Sequence record: OZ035795.1
Length of the DNA: 64,000 nt
From: Krischvirus LF73P4
Direction: 5' to 3' (one strand)
This document shows, one piece after another, positions 7,087 through 55,301 of the stretch; positions within the stretch are counted from its first letter, which is position 1, and every line of letters starts with the position of its first letter. Position numbers and translations under genes: made by a program. The notes under the pieces are model-generated. The model was not told the DNA's origin, made no database searches, and saw only the letters and a list, made by a program, of their open reading frames with translations.

Positions 7087-7115
7087 TTGACGCGGGGAGA
7101 AATCCCCGCTATAAT
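7087..7115 (+). promoter_or_regulatory. PeSL-type promoter copy A (TTGACG-17-TATAAT, hairpin in spacer)
   Basis: TTGACG 7087-7092; spacer CGGGGAGAAATCCCCGC is a perfect hairpin; TATAAT 7110-7115; 32-nt identity with copy at 7977-8008. Confidence 0.7.
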
Positions 7116-7133
7116 GTGAGGTGAATTGTAAGA

Positions 7134-7983
7134 ATGAATTATTACAATGAGTGGGATAAAGGCGCGGCTAACTGGTTACGTGAACTTATAGCAAACAAAT
7201 TAATTCCTTATGGGTATGTCGATGAAAGATCAATTACAGAAGTCACCCCTAGAGATCTGGAAGGATTTACACAATGTCACTTCTTCGCGGGGATTGGGGG
7301 GTGGTCAAGAGCATTGCAACTCGCTGGAGTACCAGAAACAACAAGGCTATGGGCCGGATCGCCACCATGTCAACCATTTTCAAGAGCCGGAAAGCAAAAA
7401 GGAAAGTTCGACGAAAGACACCTTGCACCGACATTTCTTAAACTCGTGTCAGCGTGCAAACCTCCAATGCTCTTTGGGGAACAGGTTGCAAAAGCTATCG
7501 AAACCGGGTGGTTGGATGATCTTCACGAGGAATTGGAAAGAGAAGGTTACAGTGTCGGGGCTGCGGTATTATCATGTGATATCGTCGGTGCGCCGCACAA
7601 GCGGGACAGACTTTTCTTCGGGGCTATTAACGAGTTGGCAAACACCTACTGTAACGAATATATCAGCAAGATCGCCGGGCAATGCAACGGAGAATGGAAG
7701 CGAGACTTGCAACGGGGAGGAAATCACTAGCGCCGGGAAATTTATCAGAACAAGTGAAGATGTATTACGGTTTTGGGACAGTGGAACAGAGTATCTATGC
7801 AGAGACGGGAAAAAACGAATTGTTGAACCCACGATTCCCTTGTTGGCTGATGGGGTATCCTCAACAATGGGACGATTGCGCGGTTATGGCAATGCGATAG
7901 TTCCTCAAGTCGGAGCACTTTTTATAGAAAGTTTTGTAGGTGCTTACATTGATGCTTGCGATGGATTGTCAAATAGCTGTTGA
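7134..7983 (+). pseudogene. disrupted DNA (cytosine-5)-methyltransferase (motifs spread over three frames)
   Basis: frame of 7134: FAGIGGW (motif I), PPCQPFS (IV), FGEQV (VI-like), HKRDRLFFG (VIII), stop at 7730; frame of 7682: NPRFPCWLMGYP (motif IX-like), stop at 7900; frame ending 7983: RLRGYGNAIVPQV (motif X). At least two frame changes are needed for a full-length enzyme. Confidence 0.7.
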
Positions 7984-8008
7984 CGCGGGGAGAAATCCCC
8001 GCTATAAT
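7980..8008 (+). promoter_or_regulatory. PeSL-type promoter copy B (identical to copy A)
   Basis: TTGACG 7980-7985 (overlaps the TGA stop of the methyltransferase frame), hairpin spacer, TATAAT 8003-8008. Confidence 0.7.
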
Positions 8009-8039
8009 ACAACCATCAAAAACAAGTGAGGATTTTATT

Positions 8040-8562: not shown

Positions 8563-9726
8563 ATGAGCGTATTTAACCGCGAACATGTTGATATTATGAA
8601 CGAACCGATGTTTCTGGGTAGTGGGTTGGGTATCGCTCGCTATGATATTCAGCGTCATCAAGTATTTGAAGAATTAATTGAAAAATCTCTGTCATTTTTC
8701 TGGCGTCCAGAAGAGATTTCACTTGCAACCGACCGCATTCAATATCTTAATATGGGTGACGTTGAAAAGCGTTTCTTTACCGAAAACTTGAAGTATCAGA
8801 CATTACTTGATTCTATTCAAGGTCGCGCACCGTCCGCAGCATTTGGTCCAATTGTATCTGATCCAACTCTCGATACATGGTTGCAAACATGGACATTCAG
8901 CGAAACGATTCATAGCAGAAGCTATACACACATTATGCGTAACTGTTTCATTGATCCGGCTAGTGAGTTCGACCAGATCATCGATAACCCTGCTATCATG
9001 AAGCGAGCGGAATCTATCGGGAAATATTATGATGATGTTCTGGTGAAAATCCGTGAATACGAGGACGCTAAAGAAAGTTTTAGTCGTTCTTCTGAAAATG
9101 AATTTGACCTTGATGCATATTCTGATAGCATTTCGTACGTGGAAGAAACTAAACGCAATCTGATGGAATCACTCTATCTGTGTATGCATTGCGTTAATGC
9201 ACTGGAGGCAATCCGTTTTTATGTGTCCTTTGCATGTACTTTCAGCTTTGCCGAACGTGGTTTACTGGAAGGTAACGCGAAGATCATGAAATTTATTGCG
9301 CGTGATGAACAACTTCACTTAAAAGGCACACAATACATTATTCGTCAATGGCAAACGGGGGTTGATGGTGATGAGTGGAAACAGATTGCGGAAGAACTTG
9401 AAGGCGAAGCAACGAAAATCTTTCTGGATGTTGTCGAGCAAGAAAAAGAATGGGTAGACCACCTATTCGCAATGGGGTCAATTCCTGGCTTGTCACCGGA
9501 AATTCTGAAAACTTATGTAGAATACCTGGCAGATTCCCGTATGCGTGCTGTCGGACTGAAAAGCCCGTTTAGTGTTCGTCGTCATCCTTTACCGTGGATG
9601 CGTAAGTGGTTAAACTCTGACGAAGTACAGAATGCAGCGCAAGAAGTAGAGATTATGTATCTGGTATCTCAGGTTAATACCGATTTAACAGACGATGACT
9701 ACAACCGATTCGGGAAATATCTATGA
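8563..9726 (+). CDS. nrdB: aerobic ribonucleotide reductase small subunit, intron-less
   Basis: 387 aa; collinear with T4 NrdB (MNEPMFxGSGLGxARYDIQRH, FFWRPEE, SETIHSRSYTHI, FIARDEQLHLKGTQYII). Confidence 0.95.
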   Translation: MSVFNREHVDIMNEPMFLGSGLGIARYDIQRHQVFEELIEKSLSFFWRPEEISLATDRIQYLNMGDVEKRFFTENLKYQTLLDSIQGRAPSAAFGPIVSDPTLDTWLQTWTFSETIHSRSYTHIMRNCFIDPASEFDQIIDNPAIMKRAESIGKYYDDVLVKIREYEDAKESFSRSSENEFDLDAYSDSISYVEETKRNLMESLYLCMHCVNALEAIRFYVSFACTFSFAERGLLEGNAKIMKFIARDEQLHLKGTQYIIRQWQTGVDGDEWKQIAEELEGEATKIFLDVVEQEKEWVDHLFAMGSIPGLSPEILKTYVEYLADSRMRAVGLKSPFSVRRHPLPWMRKWLNSDEVQNAAQEVEIMYLVSQVNTDLTDDDYNRFGKYL

Positions 9727-36346: not shown

Positions 36347-36375
36347 TTGACGCGGGGAGAAATCCCCGTTATACT
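36347..36375 (+). promoter_or_regulatory. PeSL-type promoter copy C (same hairpin as copies A/B)
   Basis: TTGACGCGGGGAGAAATCCCCG identical to 7087-7108; -10 TATACT; TTGACG begins right after the gp47 stop. Confidence 0.65.
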
Positions 36376-43224: not shown

Positions 43225-45903
43225 ATGTATTTTCTGTCATGTGAGCGAGTGGGTGATAAGATCTACGAGCGTTATATTGATGATGCTGGACAAGAACAAG
43301 AGCGTTACGTTGAATATACGCCAACTTTATTTCATCATGCCGCGCCCGGTATGGTTACGAATTATAAAGATATCTATGGCAAGCCTTGCATTGCTAAAAA
43401 ATTCCCATCTATGAACGAGGCCAACAAATGGCGTAAAAAGATGGGAGAAATGGGGCAGGAGGCACTAGGGATGGATGATTTTATCATCTCCTATCTGTCC
43501 GATACATATAAAGGCGAGATTCGATATGACCGAAATAAAATCCGTGTAGCCTGGGTTGATATTGAGGTCACTGCACCGGAATTTCCTAAACCAGAAGAAG
43601 CGAAATATCCTATCGATGCTATTACGCATTATGATTCCGTACATGATCGTTTCTTTGTATTTGATTTGAAAGGAAAAAACGGTGAAATCTGGGAAGCAAG
43701 CAAGTCTATTCTTCGACCTGATATTGTAGAGCGCGTTGTTTATAACGTCTATGACACAGAAGATGAATTGCTGTTAGAATACATCCGATTCTTTGAGGAA
43801 AACCGACCCGTTGGTTTCACTGGCTGGAACACAGAAACATTCGATATTCCATATATCATTAAACGTATCAGTAATAAGTTCGGAAGTAGAACCGCTAACC
43901 GTCTAAGCCCATGCGGTAAGATTAAATCCCGAATCTCGCAGGATGATTTTGGCAACGAGCGTGAAGCATTTACGATCATGGGGATCGAAAGCCTTGATTA
44001 TATTGACCTGTACAAGAAATTTAGCTTTACGACTCAACCAACATATGCATTAGATTATGTTGCTGAATATGAGACCGGAATCGGTAAGGTTGATTATGAT
44101 GGTCCGTTAAAGAAATTGCGTGATGACAACCATCAACTTTACATCGATTATAACATCGGCGACGTTGATCGTGTGCTGGCGATTGATAAAAAGCGTGGAT
44201 TTATCGATCTTGTGTATAGTCTATGTTTCTATGCAAAGATTAAATTTAACCATGTTTATAACCCGATGAAAGTATGGGATGCTATTATCTTCGGATCTCT
44301 GAAAGCAGAGGGTAAAGTAGTACCGGAAAATAAGATACAGCCTAAGCAGACTTATCCTGGCGCATTCGTAAAAGAACCTGTACCGAATGCTTACCGTTGG
44401 ATGATGAGCTTTGACTTAACAAGTCTGTACCCATCTATTATTCGACAGGTTAATATTTCTCCTGAAACAATCGCTGGATCTTTTGATGCTGCACCGATGC
44501 ACGAGTATATCAATAAAACTGCACCACGTCCGAGTGATGAGTATTCTTGCTCGCCTAACGGATGGATGTATAGAAAAGATATTCACGGTATCGTACCGAT
44601 TGAGATTAAAAAGGTATTCGATCAGCGTAAGCAGTACAAAAACATGATGTTGGCATGTGATCGCAATGCTGAACTCTGTAAAGCGATTCTACACGATGAA
44701 AATCATGTTTATGGGGGAACCATTAGCTATAGCGTTGAAGTGCGTCACGACTTCGATGAAGCGTTTAAATCGATGCTTTCTGAATTGAGCAAAGATGCCT
44801 TAGAGAAATTGCTGGAAGAATGTAAAGACGAGTCGATCTTGTGCAATACAAACCAGCTTTCTCGAAAAGTTTTGATCAACTCCCTTTATGGTGCGTTGGG
44901 GAATCCTAAATTCCGTTTTTATGATCTCCGTAACGCTAGTGCGATCACACTGTTCGGTCAGCTTGCAATTCAGTGGATTGAGCGTAAGATTAACGAATAC
45001 TTAAACGAGCTTTGCGGAACGACTGATTTTGCATATGTTCGTTATTGTGATACTGACTCCGTTTATGTGCTGGTTAACAATGTTATTGATAAGGTTGGCG
45101 GGGAAGACCGTTTCGACGATACCGAAAAACTTGTTGACTTCCTTGATAATTTCGGTAAACATCGAATGGAACCTATTATCGACAAGGGATATCGCGAGTT
45201 ATGCGAGTACATGAACAACTATGAGCACTTGATGTTTATGGACCGTGAGGCAATTGCTGGTCCTCCGTTGAAATCTGCGGGTATCGGTGGATTCTGGACT
45301 GGTAAAAAGCGTTATGCTCTTAATGTTTGGGATATGGAAGGAACGCGCTTTGCTGAACCTAAGCTAAAAATCATGGGCTTGGAAACGCAACGTAGCTCCA
45401 CCCCTAAAGCATGTCAGAAATCACTGAAAGAATGTATTCGCCGTATGTTGCAGGAAGGTGAAGAGTCATTGCAGGAATACTACGGTATTTTTGAGCAAGA
45501 ATTTAGAAAACTTGACTATCTTGATGTTGCTGCGGTATCATCTGCAAACAACCTACAGAAATACAGCGATTCAAACGGGTATCCGATTAAGGGTTGTCCG
45601 TATGCGGTTAAGAGTGTATTGTGTTATAATCGTAATGCTCGAAAATTCGGACTAGACCCGATTCGTGAGGGTGAGAAGGTTATGATTGTACCGCTTAAAG
45701 ACCGAAATCCGTTTGGAGAAATCTGTTTTGGTTGGTTGTCTGGTACTCGTATTCCACCAGAAATTGAATCAGAGGTGTTGAAGTGGTTGGACTGGCCTTT
45801 GTTGTTTAATAAGACTTTCGTCAAACCACTGGAGAACATTACCACGGCTGCAAAGCTGCAATATGAAAAAGTTGCTTCACTGACTGACCTGTTTGACATT
45901 TAA
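43225..45903 (+). CDS. 43: DNA polymerase gp43 (family B)
   Basis: ATG 43225; exo motifs (VAWVDIEV, YNIGDVD), pol motifs SLYPSII, KILINSLYGALG, YCDTDS; collinear with T4 gp43. Confidence 0.95.
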   Translation: MYFLSCERVGDKIYERYIDDAGQEQERYVEYTPTLFHHAAPGMVTNYKDIYGKPCIAKKFPSMNEANKWRKKMGEMGQEALGMDDFIISYLSDTYKGEIRYDRNKIRVAWVDIEVTAPEFPKPEEAKYPIDAITHYDSVHDRFFVFDLKGKNGEIWEASKSILRPDIVERVVYNVYDTEDELLLEYIRFFEENRPVGFTGWNTETFDIPYIIKRISNKFGSRTANRLSPCGKIKSRISQDDFGNEREAFTIMGIESLDYIDLYKKFSFTTQPTYALDYVAEYETGIGKVDYDGPLKKLRDDNHQLYIDYNIGDVDRVLAIDKKRGFIDLVYSLCFYAKIKFNHVYNPMKVWDAIIFGSLKAEGKVVPENKIQPKQTYPGAFVKEPVPNAYRWMMSFDLTSLYPSIIRQVNISPETIAGSFDAAPMHEYINKTAPRPSDEYSCSPNGWMYRKDIHGIVPIEIKKVFDQRKQYKNMMLACDRNAELCKAILHDENHVYGGTISYSVEVRHDFDEAFKSMLSELSKDALEKLLEECKDESILCNTNQLSRKVLINSLYGALGNPKFRFYDLRNASAITLFGQLAIQWIERKINEYLNELCGTTDFAYVRYCDTDSVYVLVNNVIDKVGGEDRFDDTEKLVDFLDNFGKHRMEPIIDKGYRELCEYMNNYEHLMFMDREAIAGPPLKSAGIGGFWTGKKRYALNVWDMEGTRFAEPKLKIMGLETQRSSTPKACQKSLKECIRRMLQEGEESLQEYYGIFEQEFRKLDYLDVAAVSSANNLQKYSDSNGYPIKGCPYAVKSVLCYNRNARKFGLDPIREGEKVMIVPLKDRNPFGEICFGWLSGTRIPPEIESEVLKWLDWPLLFNKTFVKPLENITTAAKLQYEKVASLTDLFDI

Positions 45904-45964
45904 GATAAAGTGTGTATAATGGCGGGTGTTGGGTGACGATACCCGCCAATGTGAGAAATATATT

Positions 45965-46164: not shown

Positions 46165-47235
46165 ATGTCTGTACTGGAAAAACTGAAAAAGAACTCTACC
46201 CTGAAAACTACTGCGGTACTGTCTAAATCCAGCTTCTTTAACGAAAAAACAAATACTCGCACTAAGATCCCGATGCTGAATATTGCGTTTTCAGGTGATC
46301 TTAAAAAGGGCTTTCAATCTGGTCTGATTTTCTTTGCTGGTCCGTCTAAGCACTTTAAATCAAACATGGGATTAACTTGTGTTAGTGCATACATGAAACA
46401 GAATCCTGATGCGGCGTGTTTGTTCTTTGATTCTGAGTTCGGTATTACACCCGCTTATCTTGAATCTATGGGTGTAGATCCTGATCGCGTGGTGCATGTT
46501 CCAATCAAGAACATCGAAGAACTTAAATTTGAAATCATGAACCAGCTTGAGCAAATTACCCGTGAAGATAAAGTGATCATCTTTATTGACTCAATCGGTA
46601 ACTTAGCAAGTAAAAAAGAAGTTGAAGACGCGATTAATGAGAAATCCGCACAGGATATGACGCGAGCTAAAGCACTTAAAGGCTTGTTCCGTATGGTGAC
46701 GCCATATCTGACTATGAATGATATCCCGTGCATCGCTATTAACCACACTTACGAAACGCAAGAAATGTTTAGTAAGACCGTTATGTCCGGCGGTACGGGC
46801 GCGATGTATTCAGCCAATGAAGTTTTCATTATTGGTCGTCGTCAGCAGAAAGAAGGAACCGAAATTACTGGTTATGATTTTATCCTGAATGCGGAAAAAT
46901 CACGAACCGTTAAAGAAAAATCTAAGTTCCCGATTAGCGTAACATTTAGCGGTGGTATCGATCCTTATTCCGGCTTGCTGGAATTGGCTGTAGAGTTAGG
47001 CTGGGTAGTGAAACCGTCAAACGGCTGGTATTCTCGTTCAATCCTAAATACCGAGACCGGAGAGATGGAAACCGAAGAACGCAAGTTCCGTGCTAAAGAA
47101 ACCAATAGCATTGAGTTCTGGAAACCACTTCTGACAAACGATAAGTTTAACGAAGCAATCAACGATCATTATAAGCTGGGGCAAGTGATCAGCGACGAAG
47201 CAGTTGACAAAGAAATCGAAGATATGTTAGCATAA
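46165..47235 (+). CDS. uvsX: recombinase UvsX (RecA-like)
   Basis: 356 aa; Walker A GPSKHFKS, collinear with T4 UvsX (FFDSEFGITPAYLESMGVDP, INHTYETQEMFSKTVMSGGTG, KSRTVKEKSKF). Confidence 0.95.
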   Translation: MSVLEKLKKNSTLKTTAVLSKSSFFNEKTNTRTKIPMLNIAFSGDLKKGFQSGLIFFAGPSKHFKSNMGLTCVSAYMKQNPDAACLFFDSEFGITPAYLESMGVDPDRVVHVPIKNIEELKFEIMNQLEQITREDKVIIFIDSIGNLASKKEVEDAINEKSAQDMTRAKALKGLFRMVTPYLTMNDIPCIAINHTYETQEMFSKTVMSGGTGAMYSANEVFIIGRRQQKEGTEITGYDFILNAEKSRTVKEKSKFPISVTFSGGIDPYSGLLELAVELGWVVKPSNGWYSRSILNTETGEMETEERKFRAKETNSIEFWKPLLTNDKFNEAINDHYKLGQVISDEAVDKEIEDMLA

Positions 47236-47246
47236 CAATGGTAGTA

Positions 47247-47269
47247 AAGGGGCTACGTGCCCCTTTTTC
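47247..47269 (+). terminator. rho-independent terminator after uvsX
   Basis: AAGGGGC-TACG-TGCCCCTT hairpin + TTTT. Confidence 0.6.
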
Positions 47270-47290
47270 ATATCTAGAGAGGATTATATT

Positions 47291-50644: not shown

Positions 50645-51673
50645 ATGATTTACTACGCAGATTATGAAATAGCGGAAAAAGCCATATACGGCGAACGAAA
50701 TTTTAAACGGTTGCATACTAGCTCATTTACGCTGGTCTGTAGTTGTCCGATCTGCGGTGACTCAAAGAAAAATCATACTCAAGCGCGATTCCGTATCTAT
50801 ACCTATAAGGATAGTTTGCGTTGTGGTTGTTTCAACTGTAACTACAATCAGCCGTTAGGTGAATTTCTCAAACAGTATAAACCGGACCTATTCAGGGAAT
50901 GGCTTATGGAGAGACGGAAGGAACAAGGCGACCACAAGAACACCACGTTCAAGCCACTGAAAAAGGTAGAAAAGCCGGAGATTAAGAAAGTGCAAACATT
51001 GCCTTTCTGCGAGAGATTAGATACTCTTCCGGCTAATCATCCTATAATAAAGTATGTCAGTGATCGTTGCATCCCTCACGATAAATGGGATCTTCTGTAT
51101 TTCACGAGAGAATGGCAAAAGGTAGCAAATCACATTAAGGCTGATACTTTCAAGAACCCACAACCTGAACCGCGTTTAGTGATTCCTATCTTTAACCGCG
51201 AGAACAAGATAGAATCCATTCAGGGGCGAGCATTGAGAAAGGATTACGGAAAGACCAAATATATGACGATTAAAACTCATGAGTTAGCGAGTAAGGTCTA
51301 TGGTCTTGAACGCGCCGATCCGAGTAAGCCAGTGTATTTCTTAGAAGGTCCGATCGATTCATTGTTTATTGATAACGGGTGTGCAATTACTGGCGGTACT
51401 TTGGGATTAGATGAAATACCTTTCCCAGACCAGCGAGTGTTTGTACTTGATGCGGAACCACGGTCTGCCGATACAATGCACCGACTGGAAAAGTTTATCA
51501 ATGCAGGGGAAAAGATTGTATTGTGGGACCGTTGCCCGTGGCATTCTAAAGACGTTAACGCCATGATTCAGGACGAGGGCGCTACACGCGACCAGATCAT
51601 GGAATATATCAAAGAGAACACCGTACAAGGTCTGATGGCTAAAATGCGGTTTATGAAATATTGTAAATTTTAA
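50645..51673 (+). CDS. 61: DNA primase gp61
   Basis: 342 aa; N-terminal zinc ribbon CSCPICGDSKKN...CGCFNC, central Toprim-like acidic motifs; same size as T4 gp61. Confidence 0.85.
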   Translation: MIYYADYEIAEKAIYGERNFKRLHTSSFTLVCSCPICGDSKKNHTQARFRIYTYKDSLRCGCFNCNYNQPLGEFLKQYKPDLFREWLMERRKEQGDHKNTTFKPLKKVEKPEIKKVQTLPFCERLDTLPANHPIIKYVSDRCIPHDKWDLLYFTREWQKVANHIKADTFKNPQPEPRLVIPIFNRENKIESIQGRALRKDYGKTKYMTIKTHELASKVYGLERADPSKPVYFLEGPIDSLFIDNGCAITGGTLGLDEIPFPDQRVFVLDAEPRSADTMHRLEKFINAGEKIVLWDRCPWHSKDVNAMIQDEGATRDQIMEYIKENTVQGLMAKMRFMKYCKF

Positions 51674-51687
51674 TTAATGAGGTGAAT

Positions 51688-52206
51688 ATGTCAGAATTTA
51701 ATTCTTGTGCTGGTCTGGTTAACGAAAAAGATATTAACGCGGCTATCGCCGCATATCATCACGCTATTGCAGAAGGTAAAGATCCGTTTCAGGTGATGCT
51801 CGAAATGCAAACTGGTTTGCAGGTTGCATTATCCGAAAAATTTGATTGGGTCCCAAATCCAACTAAGCTAGAGACTTGCGGTGAAATGCTGGATTGGATG
51901 CAACGGATGGATGACGCTATCGCAGACGAAACACGAGAGCTTTACACATCGCTGGGTGGAATGTCCAATGGTAAAGATGCAAGTGCAATCTGGAAAATGT
52001 GGAAAAAGAACCACGGAGAAGCGCGAGCGCGTAAATTCTCTGAACTGTCACCGGAAGATCAGCTTGAAGTGAAATTTGAATTTGTGGACGCGATCCACTT
52101 CATTCTGTCAAAGATGATCCCGCTGGGTATTGACGCTCAAGAACTCTTTATTCTGTACTATCTGAAAAATGCTGAAAACTTCGCCCGTCAAGAACGCGGC
52201 TACTAA
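51688..52206 (+). CDS. 56: dCTPase/dUTPase gp56
   Basis: ATG 51688; collinear with T4 gp56 (DPxQVMLxMQ, PxKLETxG, SPEDQLExKFExVDxxHFxL, LYYLKNxENFARQxRGY). Confidence 0.85.
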   Translation: MSEFNSCAGLVNEKDINAAIAAYHHAIAEGKDPFQVMLEMQTGLQVALSEKFDWVPNPTKLETCGEMLDWMQRMDDAIADETRELYTSLGGMSNGKDASAIWKMWKKNHGEARARKFSELSPEDQLEVKFEFVDAIHFILSKMIPLGIDAQELFILYYLKNAENFARQERGY

Positions 52207-52213
52207 AAATTAG

Positions 52214-52242
52214 TTGACACTAATCTATAATGGTTTTATTAT
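52214..52242 (+). promoter_or_regulatory. sigma70-like promoter followed by hairpin + U-run
   Basis: TTGACA 52214-52219, 17-nt spacer, TATTAT 52237-52242; hairpin GCCTCC...GGAGGC 52243-52266 and T-run before ATG 52276. Confidence 0.5.
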
Positions 52243-52275
52243 GCCTCCCGTCGAAAGATTGGAGGCTTTTTTATT

Positions 52276-52779
52276 ATGCAATTTACACCAGAAGAACTTA
52301 ACATCATTGATGAAGTGATGAACTCTAAAGAAAATATCGATATGTCGATCCTTAATGGATTGATCGAAAAGACTGAGCGGTTAGTGCATCATGAAGCCTT
52401 GTATCGCGGTGTGAGCAAAAGAGAAGGCCGTAAGCTGGATACCTTAATTGTAGGTGATTCTTTCGTTGTAGAGCGTCCTATGAGCTTTACGCCACTGAAA
52501 TCAACAGCAGAGGACTTTGCAACCGATGTTTATGCAACAGGAAAGATTATTGCAATAAAACCTACCAAGCCTTGCATGAATTATTACGAACATGCTATTG
52601 ACCGAGTGGTGTCTAAAGAGTATGACAATCCGACTACTCGACTGTCTTTGTATGCTATGTTGGCAGATGAGCGCGAGTGCATATACAAGACAGGGACGAC
52701 CATGATCCTTGATGAGATCGAGGAAGTTTACGCGTGTAATGGCGAGCTGATAGAGATTTACAAATTTTCTTTAATTTAA
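52276..52779 (+). CDS. putative mono-ADP-ribosyltransferase (Mod/Alt-like)
   Basis: 167 aa; R-S-E triad pattern: LYRGV (Arg), SFTPLKST (S-T motif), DERECIYKTG (ExE-like). Confidence 0.45.
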   Translation: MQFTPEELNIIDEVMNSKENIDMSILNGLIEKTERLVHHEALYRGVSKREGRKLDTLIVGDSFVVERPMSFTPLKSTAEDFATDVYATGKIIAIKPTKPCMNYYEHAIDRVVSKEYDNPTTRLSLYAMLADERECIYKTGTTMILDEIEEVYACNGELIEIYKFSLI

Positions 52780-52782
52780 GTG

Positions 52783-52812
52783 TTGACAGCACAAACCAGA
52801 TAGACAATAATA
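52783..52812 (+). promoter_or_regulatory. sigma70-like early promoter
   Basis: TTGACA 52783-52788, A/T-rich -10 near 52806-52812, leader + AAGGAGAATCAATTATG. Confidence 0.5.
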
Positions 52813-52840
52813 CACACATACCAACTAAGGAGAATCAATT

Positions 52841-53596
52841 ATGAAACTGTTTGCTTTTAAATCTAACGAAGAATTGGCGCTGGTTGTTTTCCGGCTGAAC
52901 TCTATCATGGCTGGTGCTTCACGTCGCAACAAAGACTTCTCTATGAGCTTAGTCACTGTGCGTAACATTTACCGACAGACTCATTGCGCCTATTCCGGTG
53001 AGGCTTTCGGTGAAGGTGATGATGGACTCTCCTTAGAGCGCATTGATTGCAATCTAGGATATGTTGATGGCAATGTAATTCCGGTTAAACTGAAATACAA
53101 TTCTTTCCGTGGCAATCACACTATCGAATCTCTTAAAGAGATCCAGGAACTAGGAACTAACGGTAAACTTTCTGATGATGAAATTGCCCTACGTGCGAAG
53201 TACATCGAGTGGATCGAACTTAACGAGAATCGCATCAAAAATCAGGAACTGGCAATCGAAGAAAAGAAATTAGCAATCGAGCGCCACAAAAAGCACAACG
53301 AACCTGAGAAAGCAGAGGCAGTCGAGCGAGCTATTAAAAATACTCTCTTCCGTATGGAAGAACGTTATCAGAAAATTGCAGATCTCAAGCAAGCCCTTAG
53401 CGAAATCAACAAGAAAGAAGAAAAACTTAAGGCTATTGCAAACAATACCGAAGTCGTGCTAAAATATACCAGCGTTTTGATTGAATCTCTTTCTAAGTAT
53501 GAGAACTTAACGCCAGCACAAAAAGAACGCGTGAAATACGGGCTTCCGATTGATGCGTCGTGGATTGAATTGATGAAAGCGAAGGTAGGTTTATAA
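52841..53596 (+). CDS. hypothetical protein (C-terminal coiled coil)
   Basis: 251 aa; no firm motif. Confidence 0.5.
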   Translation: MKLFAFKSNEELALVVFRLNSIMAGASRRNKDFSMSLVTVRNIYRQTHCAYSGEAFGEGDDGLSLERIDCNLGYVDGNVIPVKLKYNSFRGNHTIESLKEIQELGTNGKLSDDEIALRAKYIEWIELNENRIKNQELAIEEKKLAIERHKKHNEPEKAEAVERAIKNTLFRMEERYQKIADLKQALSEINKKEEKLKAIANNTEVVLKYTSVLIESLSKYENLTPAQKERVKYGLPIDASWIELMKAKVGL

Positions 53597-53910
53597 TGCA
53601 TGTATTTGCTGTATGTTATCGTGATAAAGACGGATTCTTTCAATACTCAGTGGACGCGAAGGGTCGCGTCCTAACTTGCGAAACACATGATGCTGCGTTA
53701 GCGTCAATGTGTGATCAGATAGATTATTGTGAGAGTCTATTGGCAGGTGAACCGAAATACAAGGTTGTACCTAAACGAAAATTTGGCATAATCCGGTCTT
53801 CTGAAATTGTTCGGGATGGTATCGAATATAAAATTCCTGAATATGAAAAAGAACGGGTACGGCGAGAACTCAATACTATCTGTGTTCGCAAGGTGAGGAT
53901 TTTAGGATAA
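53596..53910 (+). CDS. hypothetical protein
   Basis: 104 aa; start overlaps upstream stop. Confidence 0.4.
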   Translation: MHVFAVCYRDKDGFFQYSVDAKGRVLTCETHDAALASMCDQIDYCESLLAGEPKYKVVPKRKFGIIRSSEIVRDGIEYKIPEYEKERVRRELNTICVRKVRILG

Positions 53911-55301
53911 TGAGCAGAGTATTAACTTTCGATATGTTAACAGACGGGCAAAAACATGCTTTTGATGTTCTAATGAAACGCATTGAACAAAAGAAGCATA
54001 CAACTGTCCGTGGTGCGGCGGGTACTGGTAAAACCGCAATGATGAAATTCATTGTTCAGGAAATGGTCCGCCGTGGTGTAACTGGTGTGGTTTTGGCAAC
54101 GCCTACCCACCAGGCTAAAAAAGTTTTGAGTAAAGCGGTAGGTCGTCAAGCATTTACTTTACATGCACTACTGCGACTAAACCCGACCAACTATGAAGAT
54201 ACTCAAGTATTTGAGCAAAAAGATACTCCTAAGCTAGATGATGTTCAGATCATCATTGTTGATGAAGCGAGTATGGTCGATAAGAAACTATTTGATATTC
54301 TCATGAAGAGTATCAACGGTCGAATTGTTGTTATTGCAGTTGGCGATCCGCACCAGTTACGACCAGTTGATCCGAGCGGTGCAACGTCGATCTCTCCTTT
54401 CTTCACGGATGAAAATTTTCAAAACGTGGAGTTGACAGAAATTAAACGATCTAATGCACCGATCATTGATGTGGCGACCGCTGTCCGTAATGGTAAATGG
54501 GTATTCGAAAAGCAGTGCGGCAACGAGGGTGTATTCCATAGCTCAACTCTGCCGGAGTTTATGAAGCATTATTTCGAAACCGTTAAAACGCCGGAAGACC
54601 TGCTAGAAAACCGTATTCTGGCCTACACTAACAAGAGCGTCGAAAAACTCAATGAAATTGTGCGTAAGCGCGTTTATAACACCGATGAACCAGTGATTGT
54701 AGATGAAATTCTGGTTACTCAGGAACCATTGATCGAATATCTGCGAGATGAACGCGGGAAGAAGATTCCCAATGTTATTTTTAACAATGGTGAGATGATC
54801 CGAGTTAAAGAGGTCATCCCGCGCGAATTTACATTACGTTGCACGGGGGTAGATCCGCAACCAGTTTTAGGCTATACTCTGAAAGTGGAAAGCGTCGATG
54901 ATGACGAAGACAAAGAAATCCTAAATCAGAAAGTCGGTTTAGATGCAGTCGGAATCACTACAGATAAACCAGATTTAGTAGAAATCAACATTCTGACAGA
55001 ACAACGTCAGAAGAACATTTTCTCTATCTATCTGAATACGGTCGCCGGACAATATCGCGAAATGAAGAAAGAGAATCCAAAATTTAAACCAGATTGGGAT
55101 TCCTTCTGGACGATGAAGCGTATGTTCTTGAATGTAAAAGCATTACCAGCTTGCACCATTCATAAGTCACAAGGGATCAGCGTAGACCGCGTGTTCCTGT
55201 ATACTCCTTGCATGTGTACAGACAATGTTGACTTTGAATTGGCAATGCAGTTATTATATGTGGGTGTTACCCGTGCGCGGTATCGAGTAGACTATATTTG
55301 A
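53910..55301 (+). CDS. dda: SF1 DNA helicase Dda
   Basis: 463 aa; Walker A GAAGTGKT, Walker B IIVDEASM, collinear with T4 Dda (KRSNAPIIDVATxVRNGKW, LLYVGVTR). Confidence 0.95.
   Translation: MSRVLTFDMLTDGQKHAFDVLMKRIEQKKHTTVRGAAGTGKTAMMKFIVQEMVRRGVTGVVLATPTHQAKKVLSKAVGRQAFTLHALLRLNPTNYEDTQVFEQKDTPKLDDVQIIIVDEASMVDKKLFDILMKSINGRIVVIAVGDPHQLRPVDPSGATSISPFFTDENFQNVELTEIKRSNAPIIDVATAVRNGKWVFEKQCGNEGVFHSSTLPEFMKHYFETVKTPEDLLENRILAYTNKSVEKLNEIVRKRVYNTDEPVIVDEILVTQEPLIEYLRDERGKKIPNVIFNNGEMIRVKEVIPREFTLRCTGVDPQPVLGYTLKVESVDDDEDKEILNQKVGLDAVGITTDKPDLVEINILTEQRQKNIFSIYLNTVAGQYREMKKENPKFKPDWDSFWTMKRMFLNVKALPACTIHKSQGISVDRVFLYTPCMCTDNVDFELAMQLLYVGVTRARYRVDYI

Follow-up and report, generated by a model that had tools for sequence, protein, structure and literature searches.

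A Mod-like ADP-ribosyltransferase gene of the RB49-like phage LF73P4 and a promoter-early stem-loop with its predicted start inside the terminator stem

We analysed a 64,000-nucleotide stretch of DNA from Krischvirus LF73P4 (sequence record OZ035795.1; hereafter the window), in which a 167-residue open reading frame (ORF) lies downstream of gene 56 behind a promoter and a hairpin. The explanation that we favour, at a probability of roughly 0.8, is that this frame encodes a single early Mod enzyme, a mono-ADP-ribosyltransferase (ART) with the R-S-ExE signature, and that it stands behind a promoter-early stem-loop (PeSL) from which transcription would start inside a terminator stem. The gene is known from RB49-like coliphages of the T4 type and has been annotated there as a Mod-family ADP-ribosyltransferase: RB49 and dozens of sister phages carry it under the label ADP-ribosylase, predictions of its promoter and terminator date from 2006, and the PeSL class was described in the same phage group in 2010. 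What is added here is a predicted start site inside the terminator stem, in a geometry that is kept with compensatory changes, and an enzyme that is not assignable to ModA or ModB. The parts of the locus, in window coordinates, are as follows.

51688 to 52206, plus strand: gene 56 (dCTP pyrophosphatase), 172 residues, with its stop codon at 52204-52206; its transcripts run into the hairpin.
52204 to 52213, plus strand: A/T-rich tract TAAAAATTAG, UP-element-like, starting at the gene 56 TAA stop and lying directly 5′ of the -35 hexamer.
52214 to 52219, plus strand: -35 hexamer TTGACA, inside the RB49 promoter Pe:9496 and kept in all five relatives.
52237 to 52242, plus strand: -10 hexamer TATTAT, after a 17-nt spacer and abutting the hairpin.
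52243 to 52266, plus strand: stem-loop GCCUCC-C-GUC-GAAA-GAU-U-GGAGGC, the putative terminator hairpin for gene 56 transcripts and the stem-loop part of the PeSL.
52249 to 52250 (C or G), plus strand: predicted transcription start at the seventh or eighth nucleotide after the -10, placed by sigma-70 spacing.
52261 to 52265, plus strand: Shine-Dalgarno sequence GGAGG, part of the hairpin's 3′ arm and 10 nt upstream of the ATG.
52267 to 52272, plus strand: T6 run, the terminator U-tract, followed by ATT and the ATG at 52276.
52276 to 52779, plus strand: mod gene (modB in the RB49 annotation), ATG to TAA, 167 residues, with catalytic candidates R44, S70, E132 and E134.

The first-pass annotation had proposed a 167-residue ORF with an arginine motif (LYRGV), an S-T motif and an ExE-like motif (DERECIY) in the manner of T4 ModA and ModB, and the ORF was present as described. 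In a profile search its product matched phrog_832, "RNA polymerase ADP-ribosylase", with an E value of 8.8e-21 over residues 2-153, and PF26816 (Mod_ADP_RT) was precomputed for the homologues P0001 (98% identical) and P0002-P0006. BLASTP gave 33% identity to T4 ModB over 113 residues (E 1e-10) and 24% to T4 ModA over 159 residues (E 7e-7). Relatives were collected with an exhaustive hidden Markov model profile search of 1.8 billion representatives, which returned 23, and a word-indexed protein search, which returned three; residue conservation was read from a 24-sequence alignment that included T4 ModA and ModB. The results revealed that R44, G45, S70, F81, E132 and E134 were invariant, together with the initiator Met and K18, the first six corresponding to R73, G74, S99, F110, E171 and E173 of ModB and to R72, G73, S96, F107, E163 and E165 of ModA. 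The proposed arginine (R44 in LYRGV) and ExE (E132-R133-E134 in DERECIY) residues were therefore borne out. The S-T assignment held in part: S70-F71-T72 in SFTPLKSTAEDF is the conserved family element, while a later "KST" is not conserved. In T4 ModB, mutation of R73 abolishes both ADP-ribosylation and RNAylation, R73A inactivating the enzyme (PMC10468400).

An AlphaFold2 model built from a 22-sequence alignment (predicted local distance difference test score 94.9, predicted template modelling score 0.88) placed R44 in strand 42-45, S70 in strand 69-72, ahead of helix 75-85, and the ExE motif at a helix-to-strand junction (132-135). When this model was compared with the PDB using Foldseek, the top 50 matches were all R-S-E ADP-ribosyltransferases, with E values from 4e-7 and TMq of 0.5-0.6, and included Certhrax, C3, VIP2, iota Ia, CDTa, ExoS/T and HopU1. 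Among the predicted viral structures of BFVD, the model matched proteins named modB (TMq 0.91) and modA (TMq 0.84), so that the predicted fold was ART-like, as the earlier proposal implied. A single-sequence search of the PDB with the 167-residue protein found nothing, and a profile search returned Vis alone (E 0.067, not significant), in which the YRG, STS-like and ExE columns align and S70 stands opposite the TSTS of Vis. Collectively, profile homology, BLASTP, invariant columns and modelled fold supported the assignment of this protein as a putative Mod-like R-S-E mono-ADP-ribosyltransferase, with which the GenBank annotation of RB49 agrees. The enzyme would be early, arginine-specific and dependent on nicotinamide adenine dinucleotide (NAD+); NAD+ would be bound by R44 and S70, and the catalytic pair would be E132-x-E134 on the ADP-ribosylating turn-turn (ARTT) loop. 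If the enzyme acts as T4 ModA and ModB do, its substrates early in infection would be host proteins of transcription, of translation or of both.

We found that the protein could not be placed with either T4 enzyme. Identity over the core was 27% to ModB and 24% to ModA, and the 167-residue protein was without the N-terminal extension of about 29 residues that both T4 enzymes carry. In a neighbour-joining tree it clustered with five short homologues (161-176 residues), four of them metagenomic (P0003-P0006), in a clade that branched apart from T4 ModA and ModB and had neither as its sister. RB49-type genomes have one Mod locus and T4-type genomes two, counted as places per record. Because the protein belongs to its own short clade, about equally distant from ModA and ModB, target specificity cannot be assigned, and the "modB" label in RB49 is a best-hit name.

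The source of the gene was clear from its surroundings. A 2.1-kb stretch around the locus shared 98.7-99.2% DNA identity with the Krischvirus T4-like coliphages PHB13, E26, RB49, JSE and GEC-3S, the protein was 98.8% identical to RB49 modB (RB49p014, NP_891585) at equal length, and the 91-nt mod leader differed from that of RB49 by one base, in the promoter spacer. RB49 coordinates convert to those of the window as window = 61696 - RB49 coordinate.

Turning to the leader, sigma-70 promoters generally start transcription about 7-8 nt after the -10 hexamer, which here falls just past the 6-nt GC-rich base of the hairpin's 5′ arm and thus inside the hairpin. The promoter, TTGACA-N17-TATTAT, agreed with the consensus at 11 of 12 positions and was joint best in a scanned region of 6 kb; the gene 56-mod intergenic region that holds it is about 70 nt long. 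The hairpin comprises a 6-bp GC-rich base, an internal C/U mismatch, 3 bp and a GAAA loop, with a free energy of -15 kcal/mol (z = -4.5; 1 of 200 shuffles folded equally well). It has the layout of an intrinsic (Rho-independent) terminator, a GC-rich hairpin followed directly by a U-tract 3′ of a gene. A simple terminator scan missed it because of the internal mismatch; a custom scan recovered it as the sole site with a directly abutting promoter among 17 hairpin plus T-run sites in the window (8 on the plus strand, 9 on the minus strand). An alternative -10, TATAAT at 52226-52231, which would put the hairpin inside the leader, was rejected: it lies only 6 nt from TTGACA, its own -35 reads CTAAAA, and it is not conserved in one of the relatives (L004).

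These parts coincide with published predictions for RB49. Nolan et al. (2006; PMC1524935) predicted an early promoter, Pe:9496 (RB49 9446-9496; window 52200-52250), and a TransTerm terminator, "modB<--56" (RB49 9430-9453; window 52243-52266), with a score of 100. The span of the promoter model ends at 52250, at the predicted start. PeSLs were defined in RB49 and phi1 by Arbiol et al. (2010; PMC2839356) as elements composed of an AT-rich tract that holds the stop codon of the gene upstream, a sigma-70 promoter close to consensus, a stable stem-loop, and a downstream Shine-Dalgarno sequence and ATG; the stem-loop terminates or attenuates upstream transcription, and in one subclass lies downstream of the -10. 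Roughly 51 PeSLs are present in RB49, whose early-promoter consensus includes a stretch rich in A and T upstream of the -35. Promoter and terminator activity was shown for other PeSLs, and PeSL-mediated modular shuffling was proposed (PMC2839356); the 56/modB element is not named as a PeSL in the main text of that paper. The element analysed here, with TTGACA-17-TATTAT preceded by the A/T-rich tract, and with an intergenic hairpin right after the -10, between the gene 56 stop and the mod ATG, fits the published class.

How the element would work follows from which RNA contains the whole stem. RNA polymerase coming from genes 61 and 56 would transcribe the full hairpin and U-run and would terminate at 52267-52272, and any RNA that read through from upstream would keep GGAGG paired. 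Transcription from the gene's own sigma-70 promoter would begin past the GCCUCC stem base, so that this RNA would be unable to form the hairpin, would escape termination and would leave the ribosome-binding site unmasked. Consistent with this, RNA folded from the predicted start gave about -1 to -2 kcal/mol and was essentially unstructured, with GGAGG free. The first-pass annotation had described a strong hairpin plus U-tract at 52243-52272, between promoter and start codon, as either an attenuator or the terminator of gene 56. The arrangement is there on the DNA, but since the -10 hexamer touches the first stem base the hairpin is probably incomplete in RNA from the gene's own promoter. Of the two roles, that of gene 56 terminator was upheld by the TransTerm prediction and by covariation, and that of attenuator is unlikely, given the predicted start past the 5′ base. 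Most probably, gene 56 transcripts end at this hairpin, and in those that read through it would mask the Shine-Dalgarno sequence.

The geometry was then followed in relatives. When the leader was searched by blastn in the phage collection, every match came from a Krischvirus genome with 95% identity or more, and metagenomic contigs were for that reason used for covariation. Five contigs (L003-L007) encoded Mod homologues at 74, 62, 49, 40 and 38% protein identity. In all five, a promoter of the form TTGA(C/T)(A/T)-N16/17-TAnnnT has its -10 at a distance of 0-2 nt from a GC-rich hairpin, behind which come a T-run and the mod ATG. The stems varied as GCCTCC/GGAGGC, GCCCCC/GGGGGC, GCCCTC.../...GGGGGC (11 bp), GCCACCAATTA/TAATTTGGTGGC and GCCCCAAG/CTTGGGGC. 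Starting the RNA at the seventh nucleotide changed the folding energy from -14 to -19 kcal/mol to between 0 and -1.6 kcal/mol in five of the six lineages, the sixth (L007) still reaching -7.9 kcal/mol through other structure that it kept. In the six-sequence hairpin alignment 93% of cells were paired and four pairs were changed on both sides (pair 4, for example, occurring as U-A, C-G and A-U); the covariation score was reached by none of 500 shuffles, and sliding the 3′ partners dropped pairing to 37-57%. With six related sequences, this covariation is supportive rather than conclusive.

The neighbours of the unit were less constant. The upstream gene is 56 in L003-L005, is Mom-like in L006 and encodes an N6/N4 methyltransferase in L007, and srd lies downstream in L004 and is absent in L005-L007. 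These varied neighbours fit the idea of a PeSL plus gene cassette. We also observed that a dda.1-like (Y01A) gene directly follows the promoter-hairpin-mod unit in L005 (3001-3907), L006 (72-1689) and L007 (479-3803), and that in L007 Mom-like, weak Tad2-like and N6/N4 methyltransferase genes precede the unit in place of gene 56.

Other roles for the hairpin have to be weighed against termination of upstream transcripts. If it were an attenuator in the mod mRNA leader, transcripts from the gene's own promoter would mostly end before the ATG unless a factor or an alternative fold prevented this. The DNA order does place the hairpin between the -10 and the ATG, and dampening would make sense, as over-expressed Mod enzymes are toxic to Escherichia coli (PMC3014915, PMC2988021). 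The -10, however, ends at 52242 and the stem begins at 52243, so that a start 7-8 nt on removes six GC-rich base pairs, and in all six lineages the two remain within 0-2 nt of each other. An attenuator would have its terminator wholly within its own transcript and would respond through an alternative fold or a ligand; with the start where we place it, the stem extends upstream of the transcript, no competing antiterminator fold was found on folding 52200-52300, and an Rfam search returned no cis-regulatory family, giving two sub-threshold chance matches only. We regard attenuation as very improbable because the predicted start lies past the GC-rich base of the 5′ arm. A stem-loop serving chiefly to gate translation, by hiding GGAGG on long upstream transcripts and leaving RNA from the mod promoter as the sole source of the enzyme, has more in its favour: GGAGG itself forms the 3′ arm, the G-rich 3′ arm, at 8-11 nt from the ATG, is the sole Shine-Dalgarno-like sequence in five of six lineages, and T4 offers the precedent of a promoter within the 5′ strand of an inhibitory hairpin (PMC3014915). 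Against it, every lineage has a T-run of at least five after the stem, a feature that masking of translation would not require, and L007 has its Shine-Dalgarno sequence outside the hairpin. As the chief function gating is doubtful; it is compatible with termination and would be an added function rather than an exclusive rival.

A further view takes the element chiefly as a recombination linker, a patch of homology that moves the promoter and mod cassette between contexts, with regulation secondary. RB49 and phi1 PeSLs were shown to mediate indels and mini-circles (PMC2839356), and the promoter-hairpin-mod unit follows different genes in relatives, with srd downstream only in some. Yet the stem changes are compensatory with pairing kept, which argues for selection on RNA or DNA structure and not on sequence identity, and the mod hairpin is not repeated elsewhere in the window; we consider this view unlikely. 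On the side of the enzyme, the protein might keep the ART fold and act on a non-protein substrate, or mainly transfer NAD-capped RNA (RNAylation). T4 ModB RNAylates rS1 and rL2 (PMC10468400) and the LF73P4 protein is marginally closer to ModB than to ModA, but sequence does not separate these activities and the R-S-ExE signature belongs to arginine-specific protein ARTs, so that we hold a departure of this kind to be improbable.

Several observations weigh against our explanation of an arginine-specific Mod enzyme behind a PeSL with its start inside the stem. A local Pfam-A search with the 167-residue protein gave no significant match (DUF5507 only, E 0.11; PF26816 not listed), nor did an NCBIfam search. 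The targets may differ from those of the T4 Mod enzymes, judging from the 24-27% identity and the missing N-terminal extension. The polarity GN-loop-CN (polyG...polyC), frequent though not obligatory in PeSL stems, is reversed in the mod element (GCCUCC...GGAGGC), and masking of the ribosome-binding site is not universal, as L007 has a separate GGGAG Shine-Dalgarno sequence downstream of its hairpin. Finally, we infer the start site from spacing alone, and no Krischvirus transcriptome was found in the literature; Desplats in 2002 reportedly mapped RB49 early 5′ ends.

If the favoured explanation holds, it matters little beyond correct annotation and is of modest interest for T4 specialists. 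RB49-type phages, with a single shortened Mod, would offer a natural test of which Mod activities are essential, and the start-inside-terminator geometry, kept down to 38% protein identity, would be a clean model of a PeSL that insulates a gene from upstream transcription without terminating the gene's own transcripts. A bolder idea, which we put forward tentatively and do not expect to hold as a whole, is that the short Krischvirus-type Mods form a third lineage that combines or replaces the roles of ModA (RNA polymerase alpha) and ModB (ribosome and RNAylation), and that the PeSL is a three-in-one variant in which about 60 nt terminate upstream transcription, promote that of the gene itself from inside the stem and, with the 3′ arm, supply a gated ribosome-binding site.

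The gene order around mod in the LF73P4 window is the same as in RB49 from gene 61 through dda: 61 (primase), 56 (dCTPase), modB, srd, a dda.1-like ORF and dda. For gene 56, the mechanical ORF runs from a GTG at 51682 (174 residues) and the RB49-annotated start is the ATG at 51688 (172 residues), with a GAGGTG Shine-Dalgarno sequence 3 nt before it. The remaining features are these.

50645 to 51673: gene 61 (primase), order as in RB49.
52783 to 52811, plus strand: srd early promoter TTGACA N17 AATAAT, without a stem-loop, inside RB49 Pe:8927, which maps to window 52769-52819.
52841 to 53596: srd, anti-sigma homologue.
53596 to 53910: dda.1-like ORF.
53910 to 55301: dda.

The srd product matched phrog_1400 (E 3e-73) and also HNH endonuclease and endonuclease VII PHROGs, most of them within the N-terminal 100 or so residues; the best stretch for phrog_3118 (E 2e-12) was 26-210, and phrog_1035 matched at 6e-5. 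These matches hint at an HNH-derived domain.

Elsewhere in the window we observed about twenty further PeSL-like elements, in which consensus sigma-70 promoters are combined with GGGG...CCCC-type hairpins of -9 to -21 kcal/mol, the hairpin in most of them lying over the -10 or between the -35 and -10 hexamers. With about twenty typical PeSLs, much of the window is a PeSL-rich hyperplastic region. Among these elements that of mod stands out in three respects, its C-then-G stem polarity, its true U-run and its 3′ arm that doubles as the ribosome-binding site. The elements of these two kinds are given by their -35 hexamers.

PeSL-like, hairpin over the -10: 10526, 10807, 11032, 19913, 23138, 24048, 25283, 59052 and 59421.
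PeSL-like, hairpin between the -35 and -10 hexamers: 7087, 7980, 19239, 28935 and 36347.

The elements at 7087-7120 and 7980-8013, about 0.9 kb apart, share an identical stem-loop, GCGGGGAGAAATCCCCGC, and the same TTGACG-17-TATAAT promoter, direct repeats of the sort that Arbiol et al. linked to PeSL mini-circles (PMC2839356); a near-identical stem-loop is also present in the element starting at 36347. At 47204-47270, a promoter-like site, TTGACA-18-TAGCAT, is followed, 12 nt after its -10, by a complete hairpin (47249-47263) with T5. RNA started at this site would itself contain the terminator, which, unlike that of the mod element, would have the geometry of a true leader terminator. At 45893-45960, a 12/12 promoter (TTGACA-16-TATAAT) carries a very stable hairpin (-22.9 kcal/mol), which begins inside the -10 and reaches 33 nt downstream.

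Among known systems, the closest is RB49 modB with its Krischvirus orthologues (phi1, JSE, GEC-3S, PHB13 and others), which occupy the same place between gene 56 and srd/dda; from RB49 modB the LF73P4 gene shows no difference of substance, the two being one gene in sister isolates. T4 ModB (P39423), which both ADP-ribosylates and RNAylates and has rS1, rL2, EF-Tu and trigger factor among its targets, shares the R-S-ExE signature in the same order (R73/S99/E171-E173), and its gene, likewise early, lies in the 56-dda region behind an early promoter of its own and has GGAGG as its Shine-Dalgarno sequence. The two proteins differ around the ExE motif, DERECIY in LF73P4 against REQEWMIP in T4 ModB, and T4 modB, unlike LF73P4 mod, has no hairpin between promoter and ATG: its upstream region (L002 5131-5200, minus strand) shows a T4-type early promoter, GTTTAC ... 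TATGAT, and GGAGG. Early-gene GGAG Shine-Dalgarno sequences are known targets of the RegB endoribonuclease (PMC3014915), and the T4 and RB49-type mod mRNAs are on this account candidate RegB substrates. T4 ModA, whose ADP-ribosylation target is Arg265 in the two alpha subunits of RNA polymerase, has fold and motifs in common with the LF73P4 protein (R72/S96/E163-E165). The C3-like and VIP2-like toxins (Certhrax, C3bot, iota Ia, CDTa and Vis) have the same fold (Foldseek E about 1e-7 to 1e-5) at 10-15% identity, the phage protein being a smaller core without their delivery domains.

For the element, the PeSLs of RB49 and phi1 (PMC2839356; Comeau et al. 2014, PMC4122927) have the same layout, from which the mod element departs in its reversed C-then-G stem, its canonical U-run and its 3′ arm that is a ribosome-binding site, and in preceding a gene of known family rather than an ORFan. 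By analogy of mechanism, the nearest precedent is that of the T4 e, soc, 49 and I-TevI leaders, in which long upstream transcripts hide the ribosome-binding site and transcripts from a proximal promoter, without the 5′ strand, are translated (PMC3014915). In those T4 genes the proximal promoter is late (gp55) and the arrangement is a temporal switch, whereas in the LF73P4 mod element both promoters are of the early sigma-70 type and the hairpin would also be an intrinsic terminator.

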